Of a DNA stretch of 64,000 nt, positions 4,922 through 43,222 are shown in pieces. Numbering within the stretch: position 1 is the first letter of the stretch; each line of letters begins with the position of its first letter. Under the pieces are notes generated by a model. That model saw only the letters and a program-made list of their open reading frames with translations, did not search any database and was not told where the DNA came from. Made by a program: the position numbers and the translations under genes. The stretch is from an uncultured SAR86 cluster bacterium (GTDB lineage Bacteria; Pseudomonadota; Gammaproteobacteria; Magnimaribacterales; D2472), in the NCBI GenBank assembly GCA_902579825.1, contig CACHII010000001.1:76832-140831 (forward strand). Direction: 5' to 3'.

Positions 4922-5896
4922 TTGAAAAATATCTTTGTTAAAGAAAACGCCTTTAGCATAACGCTTATTGTAAGTATTTTATTTTTAATCATCTTTACTG
5001 TTCTTAACTATTTTCAGTTACTCCAATCTGTAACTAATGATAATTTAGCTATTATTGGTCAAGCCTCAAGATGGTGTGAAAGAGTTAGTGACGGTATTTT
5101 TAGAGAACCTGTTAATACATTAACAAATTTAGGTTTTATGATAGCTGGCCTATATATCTTATATAAATTAACTAATGAAACCTCATTTAATGAATTTTCA
5201 GGATTAAATAATATAACTATCCTCTATGGAGTAGCTGTTGTGTATTTAGGACCTGGTTCTATGATGATGCATGCTACAAACACTGAGTGGGGTGGCTGGG
5301 CAGACAATCTAAGTATGGTTATGTACATAATCATCCCATGGCTGTATAACTGTTACAAAATGTCTAATGCAAATCAATATACTTTTATAAAAGCATATTT
5401 AGCCATTGTAATTATTTACGCTATATTAAGATGGAAGTTCGGTTATGGTATGGGAATTGGTTTAGATCTATTTGCTGTCTCAATTGGTTTGTGGGTTATT
5501 AGCGAATTTTTATACAAATTCTGGTCTCCATCTATTAGATTTTTGTCAGGTTTTGTGGGTTTTTTAGTTTTAATGCTATTTGGGACTATGCCAAATGAGG
5601 TATTTTTAAACCTGAGTGACTACTGGTGGATAATTTTCTTTTGGTTACCAGGTTTATTAGCATCAAACAAGCCTACTGGTATGAGATCATATAGATGGTA
5701 TTTTGCTGGTATGGTAGCTTATATGGCTGCTTTTTATATCTGGTTACAGGGTAATGCAACTTTAAATCCCGATATTTTAACTAATGGTGTTTGTGATCCA
5801 GATTCTCTAATTCAGGCTCATGGAATATGGCATATATTAACTGCAATATCTACAATATTTTTCTTTTACCATTATAGGTCTGAGAAATTAGTCTAG
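4922..5896 (+). CDS. Alkaline ceramidase-family (CREST superfamily) integral membrane hydrolase
   Basis: 324 aa with a TTG start 8 nt after the etfA stop, and multi-pass hydrophobic. Motifs appear in the order seen in alkaline ceramidases: RWCE...EPVNTLTNL, then SMMMHAT, then a C-terminal QAHGIWHILTAIS (HxxWH). Confidence 0.65.
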   Translation: MKNIFVKENAFSITLIVSILFLIIFTVLNYFQLLQSVTNDNLAIIGQASRWCERVSDGIFREPVNTLTNLGFMIAGLYILYKLTNETSFNEFSGLNNITILYGVAVVYLGPGSMMMHATNTEWGGWADNLSMVMYIIIPWLYNCYKMSNANQYTFIKAYLAIVIIYAILRWKFGYGMGIGLDLFAVSIGLWVISEFLYKFWSPSIRFLSGFVGFLVLMLFGTMPNEVFLNLSDYWWIIFFWLPGLLASNKPTGMRSYRWYFAGMVAYMAAFYIWLQGNATLNPDILTNGVCDPDSLIQAHGIWHILTAISTIFFFYHYRSEKLV

Positions 5897-6997
5897 AATT
5901 TTTTCACAACCACTACTATTGATTAAATTTAGTGTTGTTTTTTTATCATCGGCTGATAACTTATTAAATTCATCTTTAATCCAATTAAGACATTTTACTT
6001 GATATGGAAATGTTTTTTGTTTCCAAATTTCACCATCTATCGATGTTTCCCAAACTTCATCACCGCTTTTATAAGCATTTGCATTAGCAATCAGACATGG
6101 TATGTATACTTTTCCAACTTCATTAAATATTTCAATTAATGAATTAGGAATATTATCTATATCAATCCACCCATAATTACGATCCTTAAAGTAGTTTAAT
6201 TTATTTTTATTATTTGCCTCTGCAGTTTTTACACCAAAAAATTCACCAATTTCTCCACTGTCATGTAAACCTGATAAATCTGACATTATATTTACCCACG
6301 ATACTGTTCTTGGTGATTGTTTATATGCGATATTTCTGGGTGTTGGATCAAATCCAACTAGTTGGGTAAGTTGACCATATAAACCAAAATCGGATGATGA
6401 GGGTCGCTGTCCAAACATAAAAGGTAAAAATTTAAGATGGTTTTCCATCAACGATAAATATCTTTTGTAGCTTTGATCAATGAGCTTTGCTGTATCATTA
6501 TTTGAACCAACAACCCATAACCTATTAATTTGTCTGTCTGCAATAATGTCACCAAATTGATTCATTGAGTCATCATCTATATCTATTTTATGCTGAAGAA
6601 CGAGCATTTTTTTTGCATTATCTGCATCTTCATTAAAATACCACCTGTAATGAAACATATATTTGGTTGTCCACTCATCTGCGAAATCTTCTAATAAGTA
6701 ATTAAGAAAACATAATATAGGTGAGGGGGGTATTACAGATTTTTCTTTATATAACTCTTCTAGATATCTTATTATTGGTGTTGTATCAGTTCTACAGACA
6801 TCTGAACCTTCATCATCTTTAAATACCATTGTAGGTAATAAAATAGGCTTGGGAGGTTCAATATCAAGAAAAGATAAATTCTGAACAACATCTCCCCATG
6901 AAACTGAATAAGGAATATTTCTATACCTCAGAAGAGATAGCATTTTTTGTGTATATGGAGATCCTACATTTCCAAATACTTTTATAGGATCTGTCAT
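5888..6997 (-). CDS. Glutathione S-transferase-like protein, long form with an extra C-terminal domain
   Basis: 369 aa. It has a thioredoxin-like GST_N start (VFGNVGSPYTQKMLSLLRYRNIPY) and a GST_C-like FMFGQRPSSSDFGLYGQL. About 130 further residues have no motif I recognise. Confidence 0.6.
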   Translation of the reverse strand: MTDPIKVFGNVGSPYTQKMLSLLRYRNIPYSVSWGDVVQNLSFLDIEPPKPILLPTMVFKDDEGSDVCRTDTTPIIRYLEELYKEKSVIPPSPILCFLNYLLEDFADEWTTKYMFHYRWYFNEDADNAKKMLVLQHKIDIDDDSMNQFGDIIADRQINRLWVVGSNNDTAKLIDQSYKRYLSLMENHLKFLPFMFGQRPSSSDFGLYGQLTQLVGFDPTPRNIAYKQSPRTVSWVNIMSDLSGLHDSGEIGEFFGVKTAEANNKNKLNYFKDRNYGWIDIDNIPNSLIEIFNEVGKVYIPCLIANANAYKSGDEVWETSIDGEIWKQKTFPYQVKCLNWIKDEFNKLSADDKKTTLNLINSSGCEKILD

Positions 6998-7003
6998 TAG
7001 ATT

Positions 7004-7639
7004 CTATCCTATGGGATTCCCAGCCTCATCACCAAGTTTAATTGCTTTTTGAAATGCTTCTCTACCTTCAATATTAGAAACATATTTTTTAACATTGGCC
7101 ATTTCATCATTTACACAACCCAATCTGTTTGCCATATAACAAGAATGTCCTAACATACAATCAGCTGCTGAAAATTCACCAATCAGGTAATCCTTACCAT
7201 CTAAAAAATCATTTACTGGAGATAATGATTTTGTAAGTAAATTTTTAGCTTGATTCAAAACTGTTTCATCTCTTCTATCAGGTGGTAGCAATACTGTTTG
7301 AACTACAATTTGATTCATTGGAGGCATCACCATTCCCTCACAGAAATGAAACCATTGAAGATAATATGGATATTCATCAGAATTTATATCAGGTTTGAGT
7401 CTACCGTTACCATATCTATCAAGTATGTATTGAATAATAGCTCCAGATTCAAATATTGAAATATCCCCATCTTCTATAACTGGGACTCTACCTAAAGCAT
7501 GCCTGGATCTGTGTTTTGGAGATTTTAGGCCTTCTTTTGTAAAAGGTAGCACTTCCAAGTCATATTCAATTTTAAGCTCTTCGAGAAGCCATGCAACACG
7601 ACCAGCTCTTGTTCCTGGTGTTAAATATAGTTTTATCAT
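7004..7639 (-). CDS. Glutathione S-transferase
   Basis: 211 aa. The GST N-domain motif is [23 protein letters not shown], and a helical C-domain follows. Confidence 0.8.
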   Translation of the reverse strand: MIKLYLTPGTRAGRVAWLLEELKIEYDLEVLPFTKEGLKSPKHRSRHALGRVPVIEDGDISIFESGAIIQYILDRYGNGRLKPDINSDEYPYYLQWFHFCEGMVMPPMNQIVVQTVLLPPDRRDETVLNQAKNLLTKSLSPVNDFLDGKDYLIGEFSAADCMLGHSCYMANRLGCVNDEMANVKKYVSNIEGREAFQKAIKLGDEAGNPIG

Positions 7640-7648
7640 AGTTACTCC

Positions 7649-8335
7649 TTATTTTTTTACCATTTTTTGCGCGTTTTTAATAAATTCTTTTGTTTTTTCC
7701 TCATCATTGAGATTTTTATCTATTTTAATTTCAATTGGTACTTTTATACCTTTAAGCATCCCAGGCTGCTCATACATGGCATTCTTCCATCTCTCCAAGT
7801 TCTCTAATCCATTAGTTGAAACACCAGACCATTTGTGTGTTCTTACCCAACACCAATTTGCTATATCAGCAATTGAATATTCATGTGCAAGCCATTCATT
7901 ATCTTTTAGATGTGTATCAAGTACTTCAAATAACCTTCTTGATTCATTTTGATATCTATCAATAGCAGGTTGTATTTTTTCAGGAAAATACCTAAAAAAT
8001 ACATTTGCCTGTCCCATCATCGGACCAACTCCACCCATTTGAAACATGAGCCATTCCAAAACTTTTGCTCTTTTTTTAGGATTTGTTGAAATCAATTTAT
8101 TTGCTTTATCAGCCAAGTAAATCATTATTGCTCCAGATTCAAAAATAGAGAGATTATTTGATGTATCCACAATTGCAGGAATTCTTCCATTAGGACTAAT
8201 TTTTAAAAAATCAGGTTTCTTTTGTTCACCCTCAGAAAGTTTAACAAGTATTGCTTTATAGTCCATGCCCAATGCTTCGAGTGTGCATGAAACTTTGTGA
8301 CCGTTTGGAGTTGGCGCTGTATATAATTCAATCAT
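7649..8335 (-). CDS. Nu-class (YfcG/YghU-like) glutathione S-transferase / GSH-dependent disulfide reductase
   Basis: 228 aa. [26 protein letters not shown]...[12 protein letters not shown] closely parallels the N-terminus of E. coli YfcG as I recall it. Confidence 0.75.
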
Positions 8336-8338
8336 TTT

Positions 8339-9400
8339 TTAATCCTTTATAAAATCAATTAATACTTTAGATAATTCTTTTGGTTTAGTCCATTGAAAAA
8401 AATGGCCACCACCAATATTTTTAGCTTTTATAGCATTCGGTACCATTCTCAATACATCCTTTTCCATATCATTAGTTACAGGATCATTGCCAGCAAAAAC
8501 AGATAAAAATGGTTTATTAGTTTTATTATAAAATTCTCTTGCTTTTTTTTGAGCATCTAAAGATTTATCCGGAATTATTGGTACATGACTCGGCATAGCC
8601 CTACACCCCATTTTATATTTAGGAGATGGGAAAGGGGCCTCATATGCTTTCATTAAATCACTCATAAAGGGTGATATTTTAGATAATCCTAATTTATGAA
8701 AAAAATAATGATTTCTAATTTGATTGTTTTGTTTTTTTTCCATCATTGCTGAATTTAATAAACCAACAGGAAGATTTTTCGTATCCCAACAAAATTTTTG
8801 CCAATACATAAATTTTAATGCGGGATGTGTTTTACCAGAATCCATCTTCCTTACTTCTTTTGACATATTTAACGGAGTAAGTTTTATATTTGATTTTCTG
8901 AATTTATACACTTCATCAATCACAGCCTTTGGAGTATTTGGCATATAGGGTAATCCGGTATTACCCATAGATATTTTTGTAAATCTATCTGGGTTATCAA
9001 CAATCATTCTTAGACCTATTAATCCACCCCAATCTTGACCAAAAAATATTAAATCATTTAAATTATTCTTTACTAACCATTGATTCATCCAATCAACTTG
9101 ATTCTGGTAACTATAATCATTTCTTGAGGCTGGTTTATCTGACTTACCATATCCAACTAAATCGGGTGCAATTACTCTTATTCCAGAATCATTAAGGATA
9201 GGTATCATTTTAGAGTATAAATAACTCCAAACTGGTTGACCATGCATTGCTAACAAAATTGGACCATCAGATGGACCTTCATCGATATGATGTATTCTTA
9301 TTTCAGTTCCATTATCTGTAAAAATATCTGTGTATATTGGATCGAATGGGTATCCTTTAATATTTGCGAAATACTTATCAGGAGTTCTCAGTACCTTCAT
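8339..9400 (-). CDS. Haloalkane dehalogenase-like alpha/beta hydrolase (DhlA type)
   Basis: 353 aa. RTPDKYF, HGQPVWSYLYSKMIP, IAPDLVGYGKSDKP, FGQDWGG (nucleophile Asp plus halide-binding Trp) and C-terminal GGGHFFQ parallel Xanthobacter DhlA from memory. The central cap region appears about 40 aa longer. Confidence 0.65.
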   Translation of the reverse strand: MKVLRTPDKYFANIKGYPFDPIYTDIFTDNGTEIRIHHIDEGPSDGPILLAMHGQPVWSYLYSKMIPILNDSGIRVIAPDLVGYGKSDKPASRNDYSYQNQVDWMNQWLVKNNLNDLIFFGQDWGGLIGLRMIVDNPDRFTKISMGNTGLPYMPNTPKAVIDEVYKFRKSNIKLTPLNMSKEVRKMDSGKTHPALKFMYWQKFCWDTKNLPVGLLNSAMMEKKQNNQIRNHYFFHKLGLSKISPFMSDLMKAYEAPFPSPKYKMGCRAMPSHVPIIPDKSLDAQKKAREFYNKTNKPFLSVFAGNDPVTNDMEKDVLRMVPNAIKAKNIGGGHFFQWTKPKELSKVLIDFIKD

Positions 9401-10044
9401 TAAAAATCTTTAATTACTCCATCCTTTATTAATTCTTTAATTAATTCTTCAAATGGATCGTCCTGTCCAAAATAATACTTTCCTTTATATACATTTAAAG
9501 GAACTCCATGATGTCCAGCTTCTTTTTGATCTAATTGATTCATTTCAATTTCTTCAATTAAACTTATTTCATTTGATTTAATTGACTCTCTAACTTCGCC
9601 TAAATCCTCACCAAATTCAGCAAACAATGGCTCTAATAAATCATCATTATTCCAATTTTTTACATTCCATATTAATTTGGATAATTCATAAGCAAATTCT
9701 ATGCCTTTACCTCTATTGCACATAAGTTGACCCATATGGCATATATCAAAAATATAAGGTTGATGATCTGAAATCTTACCAGTAATGGTATTTTGTTTTA
9801 TTGGATCTGGCTTTGGAGGTAAATTTAATGACATATTTAACTTTTTAGCCTTTTTTTTAGCATCATTTTTTAGTGATACAAAATAGATAATATTTTTATT
9901 TTTAAAAAATTCAGGCAATCTAATAGCAATTGGATAAACAATTTTAAAATTTACATCAATATTGTGTTCATTTTTTAGCTTTAACATTCTTGGTAATATT
10001 AAATATGAATATGGACTTCGATATGAAAAATATAAATCAATCAT
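9400..10044 (-). CDS. DsbA-fold 2-hydroxychromene-2-carboxylate isomerase / kappa-class GST family protein
   Basis: 214 aa. The MIDLYFSYRSPYSYL start is typical of the HCCA isomerase/DsbA-like family. Its stop overlaps the start of the next gene by 1 nt. Confidence 0.65.
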   Translation of the reverse strand: MIDLYFSYRSPYSYLILPRMLKLKNEHNIDVNFKIVYPIAIRLPEFFKNKNIIYFVSLKNDAKKKAKKLNMSLNLPPKPDPIKQNTITGKISDHQPYIFDICHMGQLMCNRGKGIEFAYELSKLIWNVKNWNNDDLLEPLFAEFGEDLGEVRESIKSNEISLIEEIEMNQLDQKEAGHHGVPLNVYKGKYYFGQDDPFEELIKELIKDGVIKDF

Positions 10045-10045
10045 G

Positions 10046-10504
10046 TCACGCTCTCCCTTTTTTTAATGACAAATAAAACATTAACATAAAGTATATTAGT
10101 AATGGTGAATTACCAATCACACCAGGAGGCGTATTAATATAATACTCCTCTGTTAAAGGATGAAGTAAACCTGAAATTAGTCTAAAGCAATGATCTAATA
10201 GACATATCATATATATTAATGGAACTAGGTTTTTATATTTAATAAATAAAATTAATAAAATTATTGTTAATGATACTTGTGTTGCTCCCCAAAGCGATGC
10301 AAATAAATAAACTAGGTTATTTGGATTTATAGTATCTATAATTGGTAGTTCTTTTATTGTTGCAATTCCGATAAGACCACTATTTTCTGAGAGAAAATGT
10401 ACAAGTGATCTAAATATATATAAAGCAAAAACGGGATAAAGACCATATATTGCTATTTTTGAACCTTTGTAATCATTATTTAGTTTATTAGGTAATAATG
10501 TCAT
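10046..10504 (-). CDS. Small integral membrane protein of unknown function (about 4 TM)
   Basis: 152 aa and strongly hydrophobic, with no motif I recognise. Its start overlaps the upstream MBL gene as TAATG. Confidence 0.55.
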   Translation of the reverse strand: MTLLPNKLNNDYKGSKIAIYGLYPVFALYIFRSLVHFLSENSGLIGIATIKELPIIDTINPNNLVYLFASLWGATQVSLTIILLILFIKYKNLVPLIYMICLLDHCFRLISGLLHPLTEEYYINTPPGVIGNSPLLIYFMLMFYLSLKKGRA

Positions 10505-11556
10505 TAATTTATTTTATCAATAATAATTTCATCATTTTTAACTGGCATAACAATTCTTGTTCCATCATCAGAAAGGGTATGGTCTCTAAATATATTCTCA
10601 ATAGGTCTTAAAAATACTCTTTCCATTAATGCATTTCGAGGTGTTGGTATAGAATGGTAAATGAGTAAATGTTTTACATTCGCATCTCTAGCAATTTCAC
10701 CTGCTTCCTCTATGGTTGTATGATAGTCCTGTATGTCAAATAGTATTTTGTCCAATTGAGGTATGGGAGCAACTCCTCTCATTCTTTCAACAATATCTAT
10801 TGATATAGCAGAATGTATTAATAGATCTACATCCTTTGAATATTTTTGGACACTTCCATCATGAATGGTGTCTCCACTTATAACTAGTGTTCTTCCCTTG
10901 TAGGATATTTTAAAACCAAAAGCTGAATTTACTGGATAATGATCAACTACAAACGGTAATATTTCAAGTCCAAGAGTATCATTTGGAATTAATTGATTAT
11001 CTATAATTTGTATTGTGTTAAATCCTGCAACACCCATTGGCAACATGTCATCTCCATGATGTTCATTTCTGTACTGGTAATCTGCTGAGTATGCTAGCTC
11101 AAATCCTTTTGTTACAAGATTTATTCCCTCTGGTCCATAAACCATTAATGGTGAGTCTCTTCCTTGAACCCAAGATTGAAGATGAGCATCTGGTAAGTCA
11201 GCGATATGATCTGAATGCATATGTGTTATCAGGACTGCTTTAACATTTGGCCATGGCACTTGGTATTGAGTAAGGTTATCCATGCTTCCATTACCTAGAT
11301 CAAAGATATATATATCATCACCAGCTTCAACAAGGATACATGCTTCAGCTCTTCCAGGAGATGGAAGAGGGGACCTTGATCCACAAACAACAACTTTTAA
11401 TGTGTCTTCATTATCTAAAAAAGGCTCTGCGCTAGATAATATATTTTGTAAACCAATATTTAAGATTCTGTCTTGAACTGAATGAGAATTTATTGAGACC
11501 ACGCCAATAATAAATATTGAAACCAAAAAACTTATTAATATTAATATTTTGTTCAT
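10504..11556 (-). CDS. Exported MBL-fold metallo-hydrolase (RNase Z/ElaC-like subgroup)
   Basis: 350 aa with an N-terminal signal or anchor (MNKILILISFLVSIFIIGVV). It carries the HxHxDH motif ITHMHSDHIADL and later His/Asp ligands (VVDHYP, ISGDT, YHS). Confidence 0.75.
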   Translation of the reverse strand: MNKILILISFLVSIFIIGVVSINSHSVQDRILNIGLQNILSSAEPFLDNEDTLKVVVCGSRSPLPSPGRAEACILVEAGDDIYIFDLGNGSMDNLTQYQVPWPNVKAVLITHMHSDHIADLPDAHLQSWVQGRDSPLMVYGPEGINLVTKGFELAYSADYQYRNEHHGDDMLPMGVAGFNTIQIIDNQLIPNDTLGLEILPFVVDHYPVNSAFGFKISYKGRTLVISGDTIHDGSVQKYSKDVDLLIHSAISIDIVERMRGVAPIPQLDKILFDIQDYHTTIEEAGEIARDANVKHLLIYHSIPTPRNALMERVFLRPIENIFRDHTLSDDGTRIVMPVKNDEIIIDKIN

Positions 11557-11569
11557 AGTCTATAAACCT

Positions 11570-12409
11570 TTAATTATTATCAAGTAATTTCATTATTTGG
11601 TATGCAGTTTCGTGGCCAGAATTTTGATTTTGACCAGTAACAAATCTCTTTTCATCATCCACAACAGTTAAGGTTGCAAACATATCTCTAAAAGCACTTT
11701 TACTTTCAAATATTACGCCTGCTTTCCGTAACTCTTCTTCAGGATGTTGCGGTGTAAAACTAATACCAAGTTCTTTAATTTGTTTATTAGTTACTCCGGT
11801 CATTTTCCGTCCAGTAATAAGTAAATTACCATCATTATCTTTTGCATTGATAAACCCAAGCACCCCATGACATATACCACCTAAAATTGCATTCGATGAA
11901 TAATAGGCCTCTGATATTTTTATACCAAGTAGTTGTGAATAACCAAGATCATATGCTGCTCCCCAACCACCAGAAATAAAAATAATGTCATATTCACTAA
12001 AATCTATATCTTTGATTGATTTAGAGTTTTGCACTTTATTCATTGCAATTTCATCTTTCTTAAAATTTTTATCTTCTTGAGTTTCAATAAAATATGGAAG
12101 AGGTTCTAGTGGAATATTTCCACCTTTGATACTAGCAATCTCAACTTGAATATTTGATTTCTTAAAATCATAGTAGGGTATTGATAGTTCTGATAAGAAA
12201 AGGCCAGTAGGCTTACCTGTTGTTTCTCCAGGTTTATTCAATACACCATGATTTGTTGCAATAATTAGTGCTTTTTTTCCATCAAGATTAAAAGTATCAC
12301 CATTAAATTTAGGATGAAGTCCTGCAAGATTTAATAACGAAGGTAATGAAATAGCTATAATACCAACAAGGATAATAAGAAAGATTGATATTTTATAAAG
12401 TGTTTTCAT
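11570..12409 (-). CDS. Membrane-anchored DJ-1/PfpI (class I glutamine amidotransferase-like) protein
   Basis: 279 aa with an N-terminal TM helix (ISIFLIILVGIIAISL). It has IFISGGWGAAYDL and a nucleophile-elbow GGICHG. Confidence 0.7.
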   Translation of the reverse strand: MKTLYKISIFLIILVGIIAISLPSLLNLAGLHPKFNGDTFNLDGKKALIIATNHGVLNKPGETTGKPTGLFLSELSIPYYDFKKSNIQVEIASIKGGNIPLEPLPYFIETQEDKNFKKDEIAMNKVQNSKSIKDIDFSEYDIIFISGGWGAAYDLGYSQLLGIKISEAYYSSNAILGGICHGVLGFINAKDNDGNLLITGRKMTGVTNKQIKELGISFTPQHPEEELRKAGVIFESKSAFRDMFATLTVVDDEKRFVTGQNQNSGHETAYQIMKLLDNN

Positions 12410-12415
12410 GACTAA

Positions 12416-12817
12416 TTATACAGTCTCGATATTTAACTGTCCTTTAAGACCTGCATCTCTATGAATATGTATTTTTTGATATTCTGGATCCATTGTCATA
12501 TCTAACATTGCCTTTCTGCTTGGATATTTTGCAATCGCGATTGAATCCCAAAGATCTTCAACTTCTCCTAACATTAATCTACTTACTTTGCCCACAAATA
12601 GAAATTTACCGCCATATTTTTTAACTAAGTTTACTACTTCAGCTGCATAAAGACCGTATGCTTCCTCACCAGTAAGATTTGAGTCTCGACCATCTTCATA
12701 AACCGCCAACTCTTTATATTTAAGCAAATTTACCATTGATATTGGTCCTATTTCAGGATTCTCTAAAAAACCATTAATTTGATTTTCGTTTGGATGAACT
12801 TTATTTTCAACTTTCAT
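12416..12817 (-). CDS. DUF1330 domain protein
   Basis: 133 aa. The pattern ...MVNLLKYKE...YGGKFLFVGKV...WDSIAIAKYPSRKAMLDM... matches my memory of DUF1330 (dimeric alpha/beta barrel). Confidence 0.6.
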   Translation of the reverse strand: MKVENKVHPNENQINGFLENPEIGPISMVNLLKYKELAVYEDGRDSNLTGEEAYGLYAAEVVNLVKKYGGKFLFVGKVSRLMLGEVEDLWDSIAIAKYPSRKAMLDMTMDPEYQKIHIHRDAGLKGQLNIETV

Positions 12818-12911
12818 AAAACAAGCACCTATGTATTTTAAATTTTTTTATACTAATTTTTTAATATTGTTAATTTTACTCATTCCTTGAAATGATACAA
12901 TTAATAAATAG

Positions 12912-13835
12912 ATGAATAGAGTTATAGAAGATACGGGGTCCAAATATCCAATTATTCAAGCGCCGATGGGATGGATTGCACGTAGCCAGCTCGCATCTGC
13001 AGTTTGTGAAGCCGGTGGTATGGGGATCATTGAGACATCCTCTGGTGAAGTAGATAATTGTAAAAAAGAAATTCAACTAATGTCAGAATTAACCGACAAA
13101 CCATTTGGAGTAAATTTGCCATTACTCTTTTTACAGGACGATTCAATGGTTAAATTTTGTGTTGATGCTGGTGTTAAATTTGTTACTACTTCAGCAGGAG
13201 ATCCGACAAAGTATGTTGGCATTTTAAAAGATGCGGGTATCACCGTATATCATGCCGTTCCGAGTCTTGCTGGAGCTATTAAAGCAGCAGATGCTGGTGT
13301 TGACGGTTTGGTTGTAGAGGGCACAGAAGGAGGGGGTTTTAAAAGCCCTGAAGAGGTTGGATTATTGGTGTTAATCCAATCTATAAAACAAAACTTAGAT
13401 ATTCCAATTATTGCAGCTGGTGGACTTGTAGATGGTTTCGGAATGGCCGCAGTTTTTGCTGTAGGTGCAGAAGGAATTCAAATGGGAACTAGATTTGTTT
13501 CAAGTAAAGAAAGTCCTGTTCACATTAATTTTAAAAATAAAATTATTGATTCAGGTATTGATGGGACAATGGTTCTTAATAAAAAATCAAAACCAGTAAT
13601 TAGAGCATTAAAAACCGACTTTACCAATGATATTAATGAGAAAGGGGTTATGGATATATCAGCAATGATGAAAATTAAAAATCTTTATTTTGGTGGTGAC
13701 ATGGAAGCAGCTCCTGCACTTTCTGGACAATCGTCTGGACTTATTGATGAAATCAAGTCTGTAAAACACATAATCGATGAGATTATTGATGAATTTAATT
13801 CTACTTGTAATAAGTTAGGCAATATACAATTTTAA
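12912..13835 (+). CDS. Nitronate monooxygenase (NMO / 2-nitropropane dioxygenase / FabK-like) family FMN enzyme
   Basis: 307 aa. Motifs are YPIIQAPMGWIARSQLASAVCEAGGMGII and IIAAGGLVDG...GAEGIQMGTRF. Confidence 0.8.
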   Translation: MNRVIEDTGSKYPIIQAPMGWIARSQLASAVCEAGGMGIIETSSGEVDNCKKEIQLMSELTDKPFGVNLPLLFLQDDSMVKFCVDAGVKFVTTSAGDPTKYVGILKDAGITVYHAVPSLAGAIKAADAGVDGLVVEGTEGGGFKSPEEVGLLVLIQSIKQNLDIPIIAAGGLVDGFGMAAVFAVGAEGIQMGTRFVSSKESPVHINFKNKIIDSGIDGTMVLNKKSKPVIRALKTDFTNDINEKGVMDISAMMKIKNLYFGGDMEAAPALSGQSSGLIDEIKSVKHIIDEIIDEFNSTCNKLGNIQF

Positions 13836-13837
13836 TC

Positions 13838-14728
13838 ATGCCAAATAACAATATAATCGATGAACGAAACAGTAATATCCAAATTTATATTAATGGTAAG
13901 TTTTATTTACGTAATGATGCAAAAATTTCTGTTTTTGATAGCGGGTTTTTACTTGGCGATGGAATATGGGAGGGCATAAGGCTTGTAAAAAATGAATGGC
14001 TATTTATTGATGAACATATAAATAGGCTGTTCGAAGGATGTTTAGCAATAGATATAACTCTAGATTTGTCAAGAGATGAAATTAAAGAAGCAATTTTGCA
14101 AACACAAAAGATTAATAATATCTCAGATTCAGCACATGCAAGAGTTATGATTACTAGAGGCGATAAAATAAAACCATTTCAGCAGCCGTCATTATCAACA
14201 TCTGGCATTAACTTTGTAATAATTATGGAACATTCTTTTGAGAGTCCTAATTTAAATGGCATTAAATTGGTAACTGTTCCACAAGTAAGAGGTCTACCAA
14301 TGTCACAAGATCCTAAACTAAATAGTCATTCAAAATTAAATTGTATTATTGCATGTATTCAAGCTAACAAAGCAGGAGGAGATGAGGCTCTCATGTTAGA
14401 TCCTCATGGATTTGTAAATACTACTAATTCCTGTAATTTCTTCATTGTCAAAAACAATGAAGTATGGACGAGTACAGGTGATTATTGCATGAATGGAATT
14501 ACAAGAAAAAAAGTTATAAATCTTTGCAATGAACATAAGATTCCAGTTTTTGAAAAAAACTTTTCTTTGGCTGATGTTTATTCTGCTCAAGAAGCTTTTA
14601 TAACAGGTACTTTAGGATCTTTAACTCAGGTAATAAGTATTGATGATAGAAGTATAGGATCCTCAGATGAAGGATGGCCAATTACTTCTAAACTAAGACA
14701 GGCTTATAAAAAATTAATTAATGTCTAA
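13838..14728 (+). CDS. Class IV (fold type IV) PLP aminotransferase (BCAT / D-amino-acid AT / ADC-lyase family)
   Basis: 296 aa. Motifs are FDSGFLLGDGIWEGIRL, a candidate PLP Lys in HSKLNCI, and GGDEALMLD. It starts 2 nt after the NMO stop. Confidence 0.75.
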   Translation: MPNNNIIDERNSNIQIYINGKFYLRNDAKISVFDSGFLLGDGIWEGIRLVKNEWLFIDEHINRLFEGCLAIDITLDLSRDEIKEAILQTQKINNISDSAHARVMITRGDKIKPFQQPSLSTSGINFVIIMEHSFESPNLNGIKLVTVPQVRGLPMSQDPKLNSHSKLNCIIACIQANKAGGDEALMLDPHGFVNTTNSCNFFIVKNNEVWTSTGDYCMNGITRKKVINLCNEHKIPVFEKNFSLADVYSAQEAFITGTLGSLTQVISIDDRSIGSSDEGWPITSKLRQAYKKLINV

Positions 14729-15437
14729 CAAAATTATTGCTATGTGGTCTGGACCACGTAATTTATCTACCGCCTTAATGCGAAGTTTTGCTAGTCGTTC
14801 TGATGTAGACAATGTATTAGATGAACCTTTTTATGCTTCATATCTAATCAAAACAAAAAAAAATCATCCAATGAGGAATGAAGTAGTAACAAGTCAGCTT
14901 AATAATATTGATGACGTAAAAAATTTATGTCAACTAAAATTAGATGGTATTACATATCAAAAACATATGACTCAACATATTTTAGATGAAGATTTATCTT
15001 GGATTGAATCATTATGTAATTGTTTTTTAATTAGAGATCCAAAAGAAGTTGTAATAAGTTTTAAAAAATCTTGGGGTGAGGGTGATTTTATTGATATTGG
15101 ATTTAAACAACAATATGATATTTTTAATTATGTTTTAGATCATATTAATGACTCTCCACCAGTTATAGATGCTTCAAATTTAAGAAGAAATCCTAAAAAA
15201 GTTTTACAAAATCTCTGTAAAGTACTAAATATTGATTGGGATGAAGCTATGCTTAGTTGGAAATCTGGCATTCAAAGTTATGACGGAGTGTGGGCACAAC
15301 ACTGGTATAAGTCAGTATTAGAAAGTACTGCATTTAAGCCCTATGAAGATAAGGAATTGAAATTAAATGATGATGAAAAAAATATTGTTGACCAGGCAAT
15401 GCCGATATACGAAAGCTTATATAAATTTGTTATTTAA
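14721..15437 (+). CDS. Sulfotransferase-like P-loop protein (uncertain)
   Basis: 238 aa. The N-terminal MWSGPRNLSTALMRSF resembles the 5'-PSB loop of sulfotransferase-fold proteins. It overlaps the aminotransferase gene by 8 nt. Confidence 0.4.
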   Translation: MSNKIIAMWSGPRNLSTALMRSFASRSDVDNVLDEPFYASYLIKTKKNHPMRNEVVTSQLNNIDDVKNLCQLKLDGITYQKHMTQHILDEDLSWIESLCNCFLIRDPKEVVISFKKSWGEGDFIDIGFKQQYDIFNYVLDHINDSPPVIDASNLRRNPKKVLQNLCKVLNIDWDEAMLSWKSGIQSYDGVWAQHWYKSVLESTAFKPYEDKELKLNDDEKNIVDQAMPIYESLYKFVI

Positions 15438-40208: not shown

Positions 40209-40385
40209 TTATTCTGAGCAAGATGTTGGATCAGTTCTACCACAGATTTCACACTTAGAACCATCTTGAAGATTTGCCATACCACCGCATGAACCTTTGA
40301 TAGGCTGATTTCTTAAGATTAATCCAATGGAAAGACCTGCAAAAGCTAAGCCAATTATTAGAAATGCTATGATTAATTCACTCAT
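40209..40385 (-). CDS. nqrM: (Na+)-NQR maturation protein NqrM (DUF539)
   Basis: It is not in the ORF track (58 aa). Hand translation gives MSELIIAFLIIGLAFAGLSIGLILRNQPIKGSCGGMANLQDGSKCEICGRTDPTSCSE: one TM helix followed by a Cys-rich tail (GSCGG, CxxC, C). The ATG overlaps the apbE TGA (ATGA). The position after apbE is the known location of nqrM. Confidence 0.8.
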   Translation of the reverse strand: MSELIIAFLIIGLAFAGLSIGLILRNQPIKGSCGGMANLQDGSKCEICGRTDPTSCSE

Positions 40386-41371
40386 ATATTTAGATCATAC
40401 CATTTATCTGAATATAAATTTTTTACATCATCTCCAACAATAATCATAACCATTAAGGCTATATTATTTTCATTGGCGATTCGAATTGCGTTATCATAAC
40501 CCATTGCATTAAATGAGGTTGCATAGGCATCGGCATAAGTTGATGAATATTCATGAACCACAGTTACAGATAAAATATTATTATCTATTGATTTTAAGGT
40601 CTTTGGGTTAATAGTATGAGATACCTTATTACCATTAGCATCTAGCTTATAGTTTCTATATTCTCCTGATGTTGCAATTGCTATAAATTTACCATCTATA
40701 TTTTGAATAATATAATTAGATTTATTATTAAAAGAATAAGGATCTTGTATTCCTACTGACCAAGGTTTACCTTTATTATAGCCATTAATAATTATTTCAC
40801 CACCAATGTCAATTAAATGATTATTTAAATTATTCTGCAACAGATATTCATGAATTTCTTGAACAGCATAGCCTTTTGCTATAGATGATAAGTCAAACCA
40901 GTTATTGTTGTTTCTAATTAAAGAGTTATTTTTTTCGTTTAAATCGAAGGTAGAAGTCTCTTTTTGAATTAAGTTTTGATTAAAAGTAGGTGAAAATCCA
41001 AGATTACTGGATATTTTACCTAACATTATATTGTAAAAACCCTCTGACTTAAGTTCGACATCTTTTGCTATCATTAAAATTTTGAACAAATCATCTGAAA
41101 TAAACTGATATTCTTTAAAATTCTTATTTATTAATGCTATCTCTGAATCTTCTTTATAATTGGATGCCACATAATCTATTTTATTAATGATAAATTCTAT
41201 TTTCTCTTTATGATGATCGCCTATATATTCACTTGATGATATTGACCAAGATGTACCATAAGCTTTACCACTAATTACATATAAAGAATTAAAATTATGA
41301 GCATAAGCTACTATTACTAAAACAATGCCTGCTATTAAGGCTATGATTTTTGAAATAAAAAATCTAGTCAC
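40382..41371 (-). CDS. apbE: FAD:protein FMN transferase ApbE
   Basis: 329 aa with an N-terminal anchor. The ApbE family pattern includes DLSSIAKGYAVQEI, and the gene lies immediately downstream of nqrF. Confidence 0.88.
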   Translation of the reverse strand: MTRFFISKIIALIAGIVLVIVAYAHNFNSLYVISGKAYGTSWSISSSEYIGDHHKEKIEFIINKIDYVASNYKEDSEIALINKNFKEYQFISDDLFKILMIAKDVELKSEGFYNIMLGKISSNLGFSPTFNQNLIQKETSTFDLNEKNNSLIRNNNNWFDLSSIAKGYAVQEIHEYLLQNNLNNHLIDIGGEIIINGYNKGKPWSVGIQDPYSFNNKSNYIIQNIDGKFIAIATSGEYRNYKLDANGNKVSHTINPKTLKSIDNNILSVTVVHEYSSTYADAYATSFNAMGYDNAIRIANENNIALMVMIIVGDDVKNLYSDKWYDLNI

Positions 41372-41382
41372 TATAATTTAGA

Positions 41383-42609
41383 CTATCCACCAAAGTCATC
41401 AAGAGCAATATTTTCCGGCTCTACACCTAAATTCAATAACATATCAATAACTGCTTTATTCATCATTGGAGGTCCGCACATATAATACTCGCAATCCTCA
41501 GGAGCTTCATGTGATTTTAAATAATTTTCATATAAAACATTATGAATAAATCCTGTATCGCCATTCCAATCATCTTCTGGTAATGGATCTGAGAGAGCTA
41601 CATGCCATTCAAAATTTTCATATTTCTCAGCTAATTTATTAAAGTCATCCACATAGAACATTTCCTTTAAACTTCTTGCGCCATACCAAAAAGTTATCTT
41701 TCTATTCGTATTTATCCTAAGTAATTGATCAAATATATGGGATCGCATTGGGGCCATACCTGCGCCACCACCTACAAATACCATCTCAGCTTCAGTTTCT
41801 TTAGCGAAGAACTCACCAAAAGGACCAAAAACTTTAACCTTATCACCAGGCTTAAGACCAAATGTCCATGATGACATTAATCCTGGAGGAACATCTTGTC
41901 CCGGAGGTGGAGAAGCAATTCGTATATTGAACTTAATAACTCCTTTTTCTTCTGGATAATTTGCCATTGAATAAGCCCTTATCACTGGTTCGTAGGTAAT
42001 TGACCTGTTATCCCAAATTTTAAATCTATCCCAATCTTCATGATACTCTTTATCTATATCAAAATCTCTATAGTCAATCTCATATGCGGGTGCTTCAAGT
42101 TGTACATAACCACCTGCCCTAAAATCAACATTCTCTCCTTCAGGAAGCTTTAAGACCAGTTCTTTAATGAATGTTGCAACATTATCATTAGAAATAACTT
42201 CGCATTCCCATTCTTTAACACCAAATACATCATCAGGAACGTTAATTTTTAAATTATTCTTTACTGGGACTTGACATGAAAGTCTCCAACCTTGCTTTTG
42301 TTCCGTAGAATTAAAGTGTGTTTCCTCGGCTGCTAATATTGAACCTCCGCCTTCTACAACTTGGCACTTACACTGACTGCATGTTCCGCCTCCACCACAT
42401 GCAGAAGCTAAAAAGATATTATTATCCGCTAACGTTTGTAAAAGTTTTGAACCAGCAGGTACAGTGATTAGATTACCGCTATCACCATTAATTTCAATTG
42501 TTACGTTACCAGTAGAAACTAACTTTGATCTTGCAAGAACTATGACCAAAACTAGAAGTAATATTATTCCACTAAACGAAACAACACCCAGAATTAAATC
42601 AATACTCAT
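41383..42609 (-). CDS. nqrF: Na+-translocating NADH:quinone reductase subunit F
   Basis: It has the 2Fe-2S motif [12 protein letters not shown], the FAD motif RAYSMAN and the NAD motif [11 protein letters not shown] place the start at MSIDLILG (42609), 1 nt after the nqrE stop, which gives 408 aa. The ORF-track start at 42645 lies inside nqrE. Confidence 0.93.
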
Positions 42610-42610
42610 T

Positions 42611-43222
42611 TTAAAGTGATATTCCTCCAAATGACATAAAGCCAAAACTCATTAACCCAACAATAATAAATGTTGTACCTAATCCTTTTAATCCTTCCGG
42701 GATATCAGAGTATTTTAATTTTTCTCTTATTCCAGCTAAAACAACTATTGCTAAAGCCCAGCCAAAGCCAGCACCAAAGCCATAGACAACACTTTCACCA
42801 AACATAAGATCTTTTTCAACCATAAATAAAGAAGCGCCTAATATTGCACAATTAACAGTTATTAAAGGCAAAAATTGTCCTAAAGCATTATACAAAGCAG
42901 GCACATATTTATCTAAAAACATTTCTAGTATTTGTACACTTGCAGCTATAACACCTATATAACTTATTAACTCAACAAATTCTAAATTAGTTCCTTCAAG
43001 CCCTGCCCAAGAAAGAGCGTCTTCCCTTAATATATAGTTATAAATTAAATTATTTAAAGGGACAGTTATTAGACAAACAACAATAACTGCTATACCTAAA
43101 CCAAAAGCAGCATCAATTTTTTTTGAAATAGCAATAAATGTACACATGCCTAAAAATAATGACAAAGCAATATTTTCAATAAATACTGTTGTTATAAAAA
43201 TATTTAGATATTGTTCAAACAT
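42611..43222 (-). CDS. nqrE: Na+-translocating NADH:quinone reductase subunit E
   Basis: 203 aa, polytopic and NqrE/RnfA-like, sitting in the operon between nqrD and nqrF. Confidence 0.92.

Follow-up and report, generated by a model that had tools for sequence, protein, structure and literature searches.

The nine genes at 12817..5888 on the minus strand of the window (the whole 64,000-nucleotide stretch of SAR86 DNA that was analyzed) plausibly constitute, judging by sequence, a modular detoxification cluster that occurs across the SAR86 lineage and is present here in its SAR86A-type form, with an HLD-I haloalkane dehalogenase (HLD) and glutathione transferases (GSTs) at its center. The window belongs to a SAR86A-like gammaproteobacterium. 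All identifiable parts are familiar enzyme types; it is their combination in one cluster that is probably undescribed. A literature search found no published description of this gene cluster, which agrees with the original prediction that no described pathway links these families. The case for a functional module comes from comparison, namely conservation across SAR86, and not from the spacing of the genes.

The listing of open reading frames (ORFs) of the window gave nine consecutive ORFs on one strand, all started by ATG and called here g1 to g9, with a divergent gene (NMO1) beyond a short intergenic region:

12912..13835, plus strand: NMO1, flavoenzyme of the nitronate monooxygenase family, divergent here (PF03060, 198 bits)
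12818..12911, no strand: AT-rich intergenic region of 94 bp between the divergent g1 and NMO1 (from coordinates)
12416..12817, minus strand: g1, DUF1330 protein of 133 aa, first gene of the run (PF07045, 37.4 bits)
11570..12409, minus strand: g2, DJ-1/PfpI protein (Hsp31/glyoxalase III class) with an N-terminal membrane anchor or signal (PF01965, 38 bits)
10504..11556, minus strand: g3, exported MBL-fold hydrolase of the ElaC/PNGM-1/AtsA neighborhood (PF12706/PF00753)
10046..10504, minus strand: g4, orphan membrane protein of 152 aa with about four transmembrane (TM) segments
9400..10044, minus strand: g5, DsbA-fold, HCCA-isomerase/kappa-GST-like protein without CxxC (PF01323, 37 bits)
8339..9400, minus strand: g6, haloalkane dehalogenase, HLD-I, with an enlarged cap domain (NF002043)
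7649..8335, minus strand: g7, Nu-class (YfcG/YghU-like) GST (PRK13972, PRK11752, PDB matches)
7004..7639, minus strand: g8, cytosolic GST (GST_N 49.5 bits, GST_C 23 bits)
5888..6997, minus strand: g9, long GST of 369 aa (GST_N_3 and GST_C_2 plus a C-terminal extension)

The junctions from g1 to g9, computed from the coordinates, are 6, 13, -1, 1, -1, 3, 9, and 6 nt, exactly as had been claimed for this run of minus-strand ORFs. Pfam/NCBIfam profile and PDB sequence searches upheld the family calls of all nine genes; the profile searches revealed no recognized transporter, dehydrogenase, or CoA-linking enzyme in the block. The flanking genes code for ETF, a ceramidase-like protein, and isocitrate lyase, and they do not accompany the cluster in relatives.

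The g6 product is a bona fide HLD-I by sequence. It scored 313 bits against NF002043 (cut-off 265), and its best PDB matches, with E from 1e-72 to 1e-69, were three chains of haloalkane dehalogenases (6f9o, 5esr, and 4mj3), followed by 1ede and other entries of that sequence. We take these four to be DpcA, DccA, DmrA, and DhlA, respectively, all HLD-I. The pentad is complete (D123, W124, W200, D306, H333), with the motifs QDWGG at 122-126 and GGGHF at 330-334; D123, W124, W200, and H333 are invariant in 86 SAR86 orthologues, and position 306 is D in 83 of them and E in three. The cap segment (153-242) has 90 aa versus 33 aa in 6f9o, and is about 50 aa longer. A DhlA-type dehalogenase with a longer cap, which retains QDWGG and the C-terminal GHF histidine, had been predicted and was confirmed. 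According to PMC10619424, it is generally unknown which substrates haloalkane dehalogenases act on in nature.

Three GSTs follow. The g7 protein matched PRK13972 (183.6 bits) and PRK11752 (162.9 bits), each under the equivalog cut-off, and is closer to the YfcG/4eci type (6tum/4eci, E ~4e-81; YfcG 3gx0, E 5e-50) than to NaGSTNu (5uun, E 4e-34). Its neighbor g8, which comes directly after g7 in most architectures, had 4hz4 as its top PDB match (E 5e-19). The AF2 model of g9 (pLDDT 92.8) predicts a GST fold (1-245), a flexible linker, and a C-terminal domain (280-369) made of a helix, a β-hairpin, and three helices. The best Foldseek match of g9 was the styrene-oxide GST StyI (9qd3, E 3.7e-7); the alignment spanned only some 250-260 columns, with 17% identity and TM-scores of 0.44 (query-normalized) and 0.61 (target-normalized); its sole NCBIfam match, IsoI, was weak (28.8 bits vs. 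a cut-off of 300). The g9 family comprised 178 clusters of 50% identity at E<=1e-30.

Among the upstream genes, g1 matched 3dca (RPA0582, E 7.6e-19). The g2 protein has one N-terminal hydrophobic segment (1-32) and an ICHG nucleophile motif (179-182), and it matched 4p5p (E 6e-36) and the glyoxalase III 4lru (E 1e-15). In g3, a hydrophobic segment (1-27) precedes HMHSDH (112-117). This MBL protein had been called a glyoxalase-like hydrolase, a description that did not hold: it falls among ElaC/RNase Z (E 1.7e-13), PNGM-1 (6j4n, E 1.6e-20), and MBL-type arylsulfatases (8gyg, "Arysulfatase", E 1.5e-18) by its PDB matches and is not glyoxalase II-like. No Pfam, NCBIfam, or PDB match was found for g4, even using a 16-sequence profile; its invariant polar residues are R32, H36, Y66, S70, W72, Q76, Y90, R108, and Y121. 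The N-terminus of g5, DxYFSxRSPYSY, is invariant, and the g5 profile matched the 2-hydroxychromene-2-carboxylate isomerase 2imd over this motif (E 0.0013).

The comparison set consisted of 80 HLD loci, each from a different species (24 close and 56 more distant SAR86 species), and a family counted as linked when it lay no more than 9 kb from HLD. The order g1-g3-g4-g5-HLD-GST-GST-GST was kept in 21 of the 22 complete loci from close species. In the distant species, at least three of the same families were near HLD in 45/56 and at least five in 34/56, with g1 within 9 kb in 41/56 (21/24 close species) and g4 nearby in 32/56 (21/24 close species). These distant clusters showed at least eight different gene orders in different genomic neighborhoods, with junctions as tight as here, and the HLDs of the clades with rearranged clusters are only 64-70% identical. 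Such diversity of orders and flanks indicates that the linkage survived repeated rearrangement. Since all 80 loci come from one taxonomic order, common descent could account for some of the clustering.

Membership varied. The g2 gene was found only in the window and at loci L005 and L042, always directly upstream of g3; it is present in 2/80 loci and in one of the 24 close species representatives, and this DJ-1 protein is an accessory member. The g5 gene occurs in 26/80 loci, adjoining HLD in 24/24 close species and also at L042 and L056. The g6-g8-g1-g9 type lacks g7, and HLD stands alone in eight species. Additional members in distant species are a TetR regulator, an NMO gene, a second NMO, a sulfatase, DUF2855, and an SDR, and some clades carry a second DUF1330 copy with a signal-like N-terminus. 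The sulfatase is of the Cys type (PF00884, CSPSR motif, N-terminal hydrophobic segment); it lies at most 9 kb from HLD in 24/56 distant species, and two close relatives also have it, as an insertion immediately upstream of g5. The nine genes had been described as one operon. Their linkage recurs in relatives, but the unit that is conserved is not this nine-gene set; the gene order without g2 persists in close species and is reshuffled in distant ones.

In other SAR86 clades, NMO1 is a same-strand member of the cluster, and its orthologues (73-78% identity) lie inside the cluster beside g9 or HLD in 21/56 distant species. A TetR gene is divergent to the cluster or first in it at 22 loci, and in six close relatives it sits between NMO1 and g1, at the position of the 94-bp region. 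We propose that the block is read as a single transcript from this region 5' of g1; co-transcription is inferred from spacing and strand only. There is no TetR regulator in the window's own version of the cluster. Because this repressor of the relatives is absent at that spot, expression here may be unregulated.

We propose that phytoplankton and photochemistry supply small compounds that are reactive, alkylating, or halogenated and that enter the cell. There g6 would hydrolyze C-halogen bonds: Asp123 would make the SN2 attack, Trp124 and Trp200 would hold the halide, and cleavage of the ester intermediate would proceed via His333 and Asp306. Electrophilic carbons, for instance those of halides or epoxides, would be conjugated with glutathione by g8 and the StyI/IsoI-like g9. 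Glutathionyl adducts and disulfides may be removed or rearranged by g7 and g5 to give back the free compound and GSSG, and the NMO flavoenzyme may handle nitronate- or enoyl-type electrophiles. On the periplasmic side the anchored g2 and g3 would act, joined in other clades by the formylglycine sulfatase and a secreted DUF1330, with g4 as a putative membrane component. The members would work mostly in parallel, as a battery, and not as consecutive steps. Every identifiable family is a known stand-alone detoxification enzyme, which supports this reading; examples are the epoxide GSTs of the StyI/IsoI type (PMC8552685) and the Nu-class GSTs, which work as glutathione lyases or reduce disulfides (PMC5892560). 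SAR86 is also reported to be unusually rich in GSTs and nitropropane dioxygenases (PMC11582366, PMC3358033).

It is possible, though rather doubtful, that the cluster is instead dedicated to the catabolism of one class of algal natural products bearing halogens as well as sulfate esters (chlorosulfolipid-like, or halogenated sulfated phenolic/aliphatic compounds). Desulfation or hydrolysis in the periplasm by g3, the sulfatase of sister clusters, and DJ-1 would be followed by membrane passage via g4, and in the cytoplasm by dehalogenation (HLD), glutathione conjugation (g9/g8), oxidation (SDR/NMO), and deglutathionylation (g7), leaving a metabolizable carbon skeleton. Two different sulfatase-type enzymes, together with the SDR, DUF2855, and second NMO of other clades, fit such a substrate-specific route better than a battery. 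One of the two is the PF00884 enzyme near HLD; the other is g3, which matched 8gyg and lies in the ElaC/AtsA neighborhood, family S4 in SulfAtlas (PMC5066984), although its sulfatase assignment rests on one remote sequence match. The enlarged cap suggests a bulkier substrate, and catabolic operons induced by their substrate are typically under TetR control. A conjugating GST, an SDR, and a Nu-class GST also follow lignin β-etherase logic (PMC5892560), and SAR86 is viewed as a lipid/hydrophobic-compound specialist (PMC3358033, PMC11582366). However, the window version has no sulfatase of the PF00884 type, SDR, DUF2855, or dehydrogenase to process the HLD alcohol product, no TonB receptor or recognized transporter is linked, and the independent loss of members across clades would be poorly tolerated by a linear pathway. 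The parallel battery is favored over a single pathway because members were gained and lost independently and the window version has no transporter or dehydrogenase. From the original proposal of a detoxification or catabolic module, we retain the recurring module and prefer electrophile/organohalogen detoxification to a linear catabolic pathway.

It is improbable that the genes are functionally unrelated neighbors, packed by genome streamlining and kept in order only through the shared ancestry of close relatives. The packing was originally taken as evidence of an operon, and it is ordinary here: same-strand gaps elsewhere in the window have a median of 2.5 nt, 60% are <=13 nt, and coding density is about 94%. 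Tight gaps being the norm for this streamlined genome, spacing by itself is weak evidence of an operon. The chance of eight successive gaps <=13 nt is about 0.6^8 = 0.017, and the block is the longest tight run in the window (the runner-up has seven genes). The claim that gap-free junctions leave no room for internal promoters also failed, as promoters may sit within coding sequence. A consensus scan found promoter-like sites (42 vs. 46 expected) and terminator-like sites (5 vs. 3.5 expected) at background level, and an Rfam search of 5000-14000 found no element, including within 12818..12911. Unless it overlaps coding sequence, a promoter or operator could lie only in this non-coding stretch. 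The many GST paralogues of SAR86 (PMC11582366) raise the odds of adjacent GSTs, and outside SAR86 the g9-type GST was in unrelated gene contexts in 6/6 loci examined. Against mere adjacency, the same families stay linked to divergent HLDs despite clear rearrangement, many species have a TetR gene at the head of the cluster, and the flanking genes do not travel with it.

Least probable of all is a thiol/redox homeostasis or glutathione-salvage module with a non-dehalogenating hydrolase. Here the task of the GSTs, the DsbA-like protein, DJ-1, and MBL would be to handle glutathione adducts and disulfides in an organism whose sulfur source is imported glutathione. SAR86 lacks assimilatory sulfate reduction and has predicted glutathione import and cleavage (PMC3358033, PMC11582366), the biochemically shown Nu-class activities are disulfide reduction and glutathione lyase (PMC5892560), and g5 has a thioredoxin/DsbA fold. 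This reading is opposed by an HLD above its curated cut-off, whose two halide-stabilizing tryptophans, kept in 86/86 orthologues, make a non-halide leaving group hard to explain; moreover, no γ-glutamyl transferase, peptidase, or glutathione transporter is linked, and NMO, sulfatase, and DUF2855 do not fit.

Known systems share parts of the cluster. The dhaR-dhaA genes of Rhodococcus/Mycobacterium form a haloalkane catabolic cluster with a TetR-type regulator, and the DhlA pathway occurs in Xanthobacter autotrophicus GJ10. As in these systems, a hydrolytic haloalkane dehalogenase is central in SAR86, with a TetR gene beside it in many relatives, and g6 has the Asp-His-Asp triad and Trp-Trp halide site of the HLD-I enzyme DhlA. 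The dhaA/DhlA clusters combine the dehalogenase with alcohol/aldehyde dehydrogenases and a haloacid dehalogenase, without GSTs, whereas the SAR86 block lacks both of these enzyme types and has three GSTs, the kappa-like protein, DUF1330, exported hydrolases, and a membrane protein. Its host is an oligotrophic ocean bacterium and not a pollutant degrader, and the longer g6 cap is a further difference. In Escherichia coli, nemRA-gloA unites a TetR-family sensor, a flavin oxidoreductase, and parallel-acting glyoxal/electrophile detoxification enzymes. The SAR86 cluster resembles it in these respects, except that the window genome has no regulator; that operon has NemA (OYE) and GloA (glyoxalase I) and no dehalogenase, GST array, or exported members. 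The sphingomonad lin pathway, which acts on an anthropogenic pesticide, likewise has a haloalkane dehalogenase (LinB, HLD-II) and a GST (LinD, of the dehalogenase type) in one organism, yet its genes are dispersed and IS-associated, unlike the single SAR86 block with its HLD-I.

The glutathione-dependent epoxide pathways isoGHIJ (isoprene) and styGHIJ (styrene; PMC8552685) also cluster at least two GSTs with an SDR, as sister SAR86 clusters do, and g9 matches StyI and IsoI, both remotely; no epoxide-making monooxygenase or CoA-transferase is linked in SAR86, and g9 has an additional C-terminal domain of about 90 aa that is missing from StyI and IsoI. The lignin β-etherase pathway joins LigD/E/F to the Nu-class glutathione lyase NaGSTNu (PMC5892560), which strips glutathione from the adduct. 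It shares with the block conjugating GSTs and a Nu-class-like GST (g7), and differs in its unrelated substrate class and in the β-etherases, homologues of which were not identified. The SAR86 cluster is probably an undescribed defense or breakdown module for reactive (halogenated) compounds.

The block consists of nine genes, numbered from the upstream end (g1) to the downstream end (g9). An ORF listing returned coordinates identical to those first reported:

g1, 12416–12817, minus strand: ATG-initiated ORF, DUF1330 protein
g2, 11570–12409, minus strand: ATG-initiated ORF, DJ-1/PfpI protein
g3, 10504–11556, minus strand: ATG-initiated ORF, metallo-beta-lactamase (MBL) superfamily protein
g4, 10046–10504, minus strand: ATG-initiated ORF, membrane protein
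g5, 9400–10044, minus strand: ATG-initiated ORF, kappa-like DsbA-fold protein
g6, 8339–9400, minus strand: ATG-initiated ORF, haloalkane dehalogenase (HLD)
g7, 7649–8335, minus strand: ATG-initiated ORF, Nu-class-like glutathione transferase (GST)
g8, 7004–7639, minus strand: ATG-initiated ORF, GST
g9, 5888–6997, minus strand: ATG-initiated ORF, long GST

The original prediction described g6 as a DhlA-type dehalogenase with a longer cap, and our results support this description. The protein scored 313 bits against the haloalkane-dehalogenase model NF002043 (NCBIfam; cut-off 265), and its top PDB matches (6f9o, 5esr, 4mj3, 1ede, and 2xt0) were all deposited as haloalkane dehalogenases. It is closest to 6f9o, 5esr, and 4mj3, followed by the sequence group of 1ede, and all of these score far above the DhaA/HaloTag-type dehalogenases. 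The entries 6f9o, 5esr, 4mj3, and 1ede are DpcA, DccA, DmrA, and DhlA, respectively, all members of subfamily HLD-I, to which 2xt0 also belongs; DhaA is an HLD-II enzyme.

The halide-stabilising pair is Trp-Trp in HLD-I and Asn-Trp in HLD-II and HLD-III. The pentad of g6 comprises the nucleophile D123, the halide-binding W124, the cap W200, the acid D306, and the base H333. HMMER alignments to PDB chains, the main basis of this assignment, matched D123 (QDWGG), H333 (GGGHF), and D306 (GNDPV) to their counterparts in 6f9o and 5esr, and W200 (FMYW) to the cap Trp of DccA (FEAW). W200 also aligned with W175 of DhlA. D123, W124, W200, and H333 are kept in 86 of 86 SAR86 orthologues; at position 306, 83 of them have D and three have E. 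The QDWGG motif singled out in the original prediction contains D123 and W124, and its C-terminal GHF histidine is H333. The cap segment (residues 153–242) has 90 aa versus 33 aa in 6f9o, an enlargement (90–99 aa) common to most SAR86 orthologues. Judged by its sequence, g6 is a true HLD-I whose cap is unusually large.

Pfam and NCBIfam also bore out the other family calls of the original prediction, those of g5 and g7 as putative assignments. Among the glutathione-fold proteins, g7 matched 4eci/6tum (E ~4e-81), YfcG (3gx0, E 5e-50), and NaGSTNu (5uun, E 4e-34) in the PDB search, and it also resembles YghU (3c8e). Its scores fall below the NCBIfam equivalog cut-offs (183.6 vs. 332 and 162.9 vs. 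325), and it is best classed as a putative Nu-class-like protein, orthologous to neither E. coli enzyme. By PDB search, g8 is a generic cytosolic GST. The g5 protein has a DsbA fold (PF01323, 37 bits; Pfam cut-off 25.6), and its N-terminal motif, an invariant RSPYSY at residues 9–14, has no Cys. Its profile matched the NahD-type isomerase 2imd (2-hydroxychromene-2-carboxylate isomerase) weakly, with an E of 0.0013 over 37 residues, and no NCBIfam match was found.

The long GST, g9, has the thioredoxin-like N-domain and helical C-domain of the cytosolic GST superfamily (GST_N_3, 33 bits; Pfam), and a sequence search found no relative of it in the PDB. An AF2 model built from 20 close homologues had a pLDDT of 63; the model used here, from a 64-sequence alignment, reached 92.8. 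It shows a GST fold at residues 1–245, a disordered linker, and a compact, confidently modelled C-terminal domain at 280–369 made up of a helix, a beta-hairpin, and three helices. Foldseek returned 253 PDB matches at E ≤ 0.001, of which the best 50 all belong to the GST superfamily; the top match was the styrene-oxide GST StyI (E 3.7e-7, target-normalised TM-score 0.61). The GST matches align over ~240–290 columns of g9 and leave the 280–369 domain uncovered. The sole NCBIfam match was the isoprene-epoxide GST IsoI, at 28.8 bits against a cut-off of 300. We rejected a Xi-class GS-hydroquinone reductase, as the CPWA-type Cys is missing (Ser13 in GSPY) and no match to such a family was found. 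Long GSTs of this family occur widely (178 clusters at 50% identity, E ≤ 1e-30), and the C-terminal domain is kept across this family of ~340-aa proteins. A word-index search with g9 alone found only near-identical SAR86 proteins and is hence uninformative on distribution.

At the upstream end of the block, the nearest solved relative of g1 (DUF1330) is RPA0582 (3dca, E 7.6e-19). The g2 protein has one N-terminal hydrophobic segment, scored 38.3 bits against PF01965 (Pfam cut-off 26.6), carries the nucleophile-elbow Cys-His in ICHG at 179–182, and matched 4p5p (E 6e-36) and glyoxalase III 4lru (E 1e-15). By sequence it is a DJ-1/PfpI protein of the Hsp31/glyoxalase III class.

The HMHSDH motif at 112–117 and the matches to PF12706 (50.4 bits) and PF00753 (45.9 bits) place g3 in the metallo-beta-lactamase superfamily. 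The original prediction had regarded it as glyoxalase-like; a glyoxalase II role is withdrawn here. NCBIfam and PDB searches gave no match to GloB, and the relatives of g3 are RNase Z/ElaC, GntH, the deep-sea PNGM-1 (E 1.6e-20), and the MBL-fold "Arysulfatase" 8gyg (E 1.5e-18). SulfAtlas places the MBL-type arylsulfatase AtsA (family S4) on a branch beside ElaC (PMC5066984). An N-terminal hydrophobic segment implies that g3 is exported.

The g4 protein (152 aa, about four TM segments) had no Pfam, NCBIfam, or PDB match, even as a 16-sequence profile. Nine polar residues (R32, H36, Y66, S70, W72, Q76, Y90, R108, and Y121) are invariant in its family, which suggests a catalytic or binding role. 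Two candidate relationships were discarded. The first, a MAPEG membrane GST, found no Pfam match at E ≤ 10 with any of 16 members and no PDB profile match; the likeness to MAPEG lies solely in size (~150 aa) and TM count (four). The second, kinship with the DUF4345-like or mem132 proteins of sister clusters, was unsupported by Pfam, PDB profile, and hhalign comparisons.

Junctions recomputed from the ORF coordinates agreed with those first reported (6, 13, -1, 1, -1, 3, 9, and 6 nt). The original prediction used this gap-free spacing as an argument for an operon, and that argument should be dropped: for same-strand junctions outside the block the median is 2.5 nt, with 60% at or below 13 nt (n = 30, window), and coding density in the window is ~94%. 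Because tight junctions are the norm here, spacing by itself says little about function. The nine-gene run is the longest tight run in the window; given the window's own junction distribution, eight junctions of ≤13 nt in a row would occur with a probability of about 0.6^8, or ~0.02. The second-longest same-strand run (40382–47187, minus strand) has seven genes with several overlapping junctions.

As expected of an operon, g1–g9 share one strand and are joined by short junctions, with no sign of internal terminators. Scans with consensus promoters and terminators gave no signals above shuffle level; the single minus-strand terminator-like site (6449–6436) lies inside g9, and such sites number at background level. 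An Rfam scan of 5000–14000 found no Rfam family, riboswitch, or leader. G+C content is ~0.30–0.33 throughout the block, the same as in the remainder of the window, and so a recent foreign origin is not suggested.

Divergent from g1 is a tight plus-strand run (12912–15437) of a nitronate-monooxygenase-family gene (NMO, 12912–13835), a class IV aminotransferase, and a Sulfotransfer_5 protein (PF19798); the aminotransferase and sulfotransferase are absent from about half of the close relatives. Convergent with g9 is a gene for a ceramidase-like (PF05875) multi-pass membrane protein (4922–5896, plus strand), whose stop codon region overlaps the g9 3' end by 9 nt. Every SAR86A-like locus has this gene on the downstream side of the cluster.

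A scan of one genome per GTDB species identified 208 loci encoding a g6 relative. The nine proteins and their neighbours were mapped onto the best 80 of these by tblastn, together with ORF calling and clustering. Almost all of the 80 are labelled SAR86, including SAR86A (87% identity), SAR86B, and SAR86E, and the closest g6 relative is 97% identical. We divided them into a close set of 24 species (HLD 75–97% identical) and a distant set of 56 species (64–70%).

The original prediction proposed testing whether the nine-gene order recurs in related genomes. An eight-gene order, g1-g3-g4-g5-g6-g7-g8-g9, is kept in 21 of the 22 close loci that are complete across the region, with equally tight junctions and unchanged flanking genes (NMO at one end, the ceramidase-like gene and etfAB at the other), and two further loci that end at contig edges are consistent with it. 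Outside the window, g2 occurs in only one of the 24 close species (locus L005), so that the block is typically one of eight genes and the nine-gene form is in the minority. The one deviating close locus, L011 (SAR86A scaffold JH611156), has a rhomboid, a GalU-like gene, an MBL gene interrupted by an N-run, and an SPFH gene at ~5400–9171 in place of g3-g4; given the N-run and the unrelated housekeeping genes, this is probably a scaffolding or assembly join in a metagenome-assembled reference and not a real rearrangement.

Other variation among the close species is mainly at the upstream end of the block. A TetR gene lies between NMO and g1 in six of the 24, and a sulfatase is inserted upstream of g5 in two. 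About nine close species (loci L001, L002, L004, L008, L010, L011, L012, L020, and L023) have a second HLD-like paralogue, antisense between NMO1 (the NMO of the window) and g1 and absent from the window. It has 376–429 aa (e.g., the 406-aa ORF L002_9), is 34–38% identical to g6, and has an N-terminal hydrophobic segment, so that it is apparently exported. The five aligned paralogues (L001, L002, L010, L011, and L020) retain the Asp-Trp, cap Trp, Asp, and His. An HLD located in the periplasm would be out of the ordinary.

In the distant species gene order and flanks differ, and the same families still adjoin the dehalogenase. At least three of them lie within 9 kb of the HLD gene in 45 of the 56 species and at least five in 34; by family, the counts are 41 for g1, 35 for g9, 32 for g4, 30 for g8, 28 for g3, and 25 for g7. 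The HLD stands alone, without a cluster, in eight species. In 21 of the 56, the orthologue of the window NMO is embedded in the cluster in the same orientation, and in 16 a TetR gene adjoins the cluster. SAR86 loci show at least eight cluster architectures, examples of which are listed below.

Examples of cluster architectures among SAR86 loci (parentheses as recorded; HLD, g6; NMO2, second NMO-family protein)
TetR< NMO1 g9 HLD g7 g8 g1 (g1) g4 DUF2855 (sulfatase) DUF4345-like g3 SDR NMO2
TetR< HLD g7 g8 g1 g4 DUF2855 sulfatase DUF4345-like g3 NMO2
g1 g9 HLD NMO1 g4 sulfatase mem132 NMO2
HLD g8 g1 g9 DUF2855 g4 sulfatase
sulfatase g5 HLD g7 g8 g1 DUF2855 (g9) SDR NMO2
g9 HLD g1 g3

Pfam searches identified the extra members as DUF2855, a TetR regulator, a second NMO-family protein, an SDR whose TGxxxGIG motif is intact, and a sulfatase (PF00884) that has a CSPSR motif and begins with a hydrophobic N-terminal segment. 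The 64-kb window has no TetR homologue anywhere, and no sulfatase, DUF2855, DUF4345, or NMO2 in its remainder; the same search matched two unrelated SDRs (25–27% identity) near 59.8 and 63.4–64.0 kb and gave cross-matches to the window's own NMO and HLD genes. It is curious that a sulfotransferase adjoins a cluster whose sister-clade versions hold sulfatases.

A profile search followed by six context look-ups covered the g9 family outside SAR86. The six loci, from other phyla, had unrelated contexts and no dehalogenase. One of them (L085) carries g9-type long GSTs in a pair at 8001–10033. Another (L084) has a PF00884 sulfatase (5287–6951) ~1 kb and a second long GST of 334 aa (1865–2869) ~5 kb upstream of the queried GST. 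The linkage of the HLD to the cluster appears to be specific to SAR86, and since it has survived many rearrangements, it is difficult to account for unless the genes were selected to stay together or to be co-regulated. The dedicated electrophile or organohalogen module of the original prediction is largely borne out by comparative genomics, but the unit is redefined: NMO and TetR belong to it, the DJ-1 protein is an accessory, and its MBL protein is not glyoxalase-like.

We propose that the cluster is a battery of parallel, stand-alone enzymes against reactive, largely halogenated electrophiles. Transcription of the block would be driven from the 94-bp stretch that precedes g1, in the window without a dedicated repressor. 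HLD would perform hydrolytic dehalogenation and g9 and g8 glutathione conjugation, and the Nu-class-like g7 and kappa-like g5 may clear or rearrange glutathionyl adducts and disulfides. For Nu-class GSTs, glutathione lyase and disulfide reductase activities have been demonstrated (PMC5892560). NMO would oxidise nitronate- or enoyl-type compounds. Export or anchoring of g2 and g3 is predicted, g4 is a membrane protein, and the linkage is persistent; g2 and g3 would work in the periplasm, joined in other clades by the sulfatase and a secreted DUF1330 protein.

We prefer parallel action to a linear pathway, with about even confidence, for three reasons: members are gained and lost independently among clades, the version in the window has neither a dehydrogenase for the alcohol product of HLD nor a recognised transporter, and all the families that could be identified are known as detoxification enzymes that work on their own. 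The main rival, a catabolic route dedicated to algal products that are halogenated and sulfated, seems to us possible if rather unlikely; in its favour are TetR control, the enlarged HLD cap, the two sulfatase-type enzymes, and the presence of SDR, DUF2855, and NMO2 genes in sister clusters.

A bolder reading, which we consider quite improbable, is an undescribed pathway in which periplasmic desulfation is coupled to cytoplasmic hydrolytic and GSH-dependent dehalogenation of halogenated, sulfated algal lipids or natural organohalogens. It would give HLDs their first natural physiological role and cast DUF1330, g4, and the g9 C-terminal domain as novel catalysts or carriers; as SAR86 is among the most abundant surface-ocean bacteria, such a pathway would be a quantitatively relevant marine halogen sink. 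That the genes are neighbours by chance has slightly less still to recommend it, being contradicted by a linkage that persists through rearrangement. Least probable of all is a role in thiol homeostasis or glutathione salvage, which leaves a dehalogenase with both halide-binding tryptophans conserved unexplained.

The original prediction knew of no pathway linking these families, and a full-text literature search on SAR86 likewise found no description of the cluster. The nearest known systems are the TetR-linked dhaR-dhaA clusters and the DhlA pathway, which share the enzyme class and regulator type with the SAR86 cluster; they contain dehydrogenases and a haloacid dehalogenase and no GSTs. 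The nemRA-gloA electrophile-response operon has in common with it the regulator type and the parallel-acting design proposed here. GSTs and an SDR are also clustered in the iso and sty GSH-dependent epoxide pathways (PMC8552685), home of the nearest structural neighbour of g9, but that similarity is remote, and no monooxygenase is linked in the SAR86 cluster. The beta-etherase pathway, with its Nu-class lyase (PMC5892560), follows the logic of conjugating and then removing glutathione that is proposed here for the cluster. None of those systems combines an HLD, three GSTs, a kappa-like protein, DUF1330, exported hydrolases, and an NMO. The cluster is a new combination of known enzyme families and no new mechanism, with a lineage-specific detoxification or catabolic function, as we infer.

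The biological role of HLDs outside pollutant degraders is described as still poorly understood (PMC10619424). An intact HLD-I is central here to a cluster held together by selection through rearrangements, in an abundant surface-ocean lineage, which provides a testable genomic context for natural dehalogenase function. As regards the cluster, two SAR86 genome papers mention just high GST copy number (PMC11582366) and nitropropane dioxygenases (PMC3358033), and the cluster offers a rationale for the richness of SAR86 in both. It also supplies guilt-by-association leads for DUF1330, the g4 membrane family, and the g9 C-terminal domain. Since a SAR86 isolate now exists, the cluster is open to experiment, and activity on natural organohalogens would make it relevant to the turnover of marine halocarbons.
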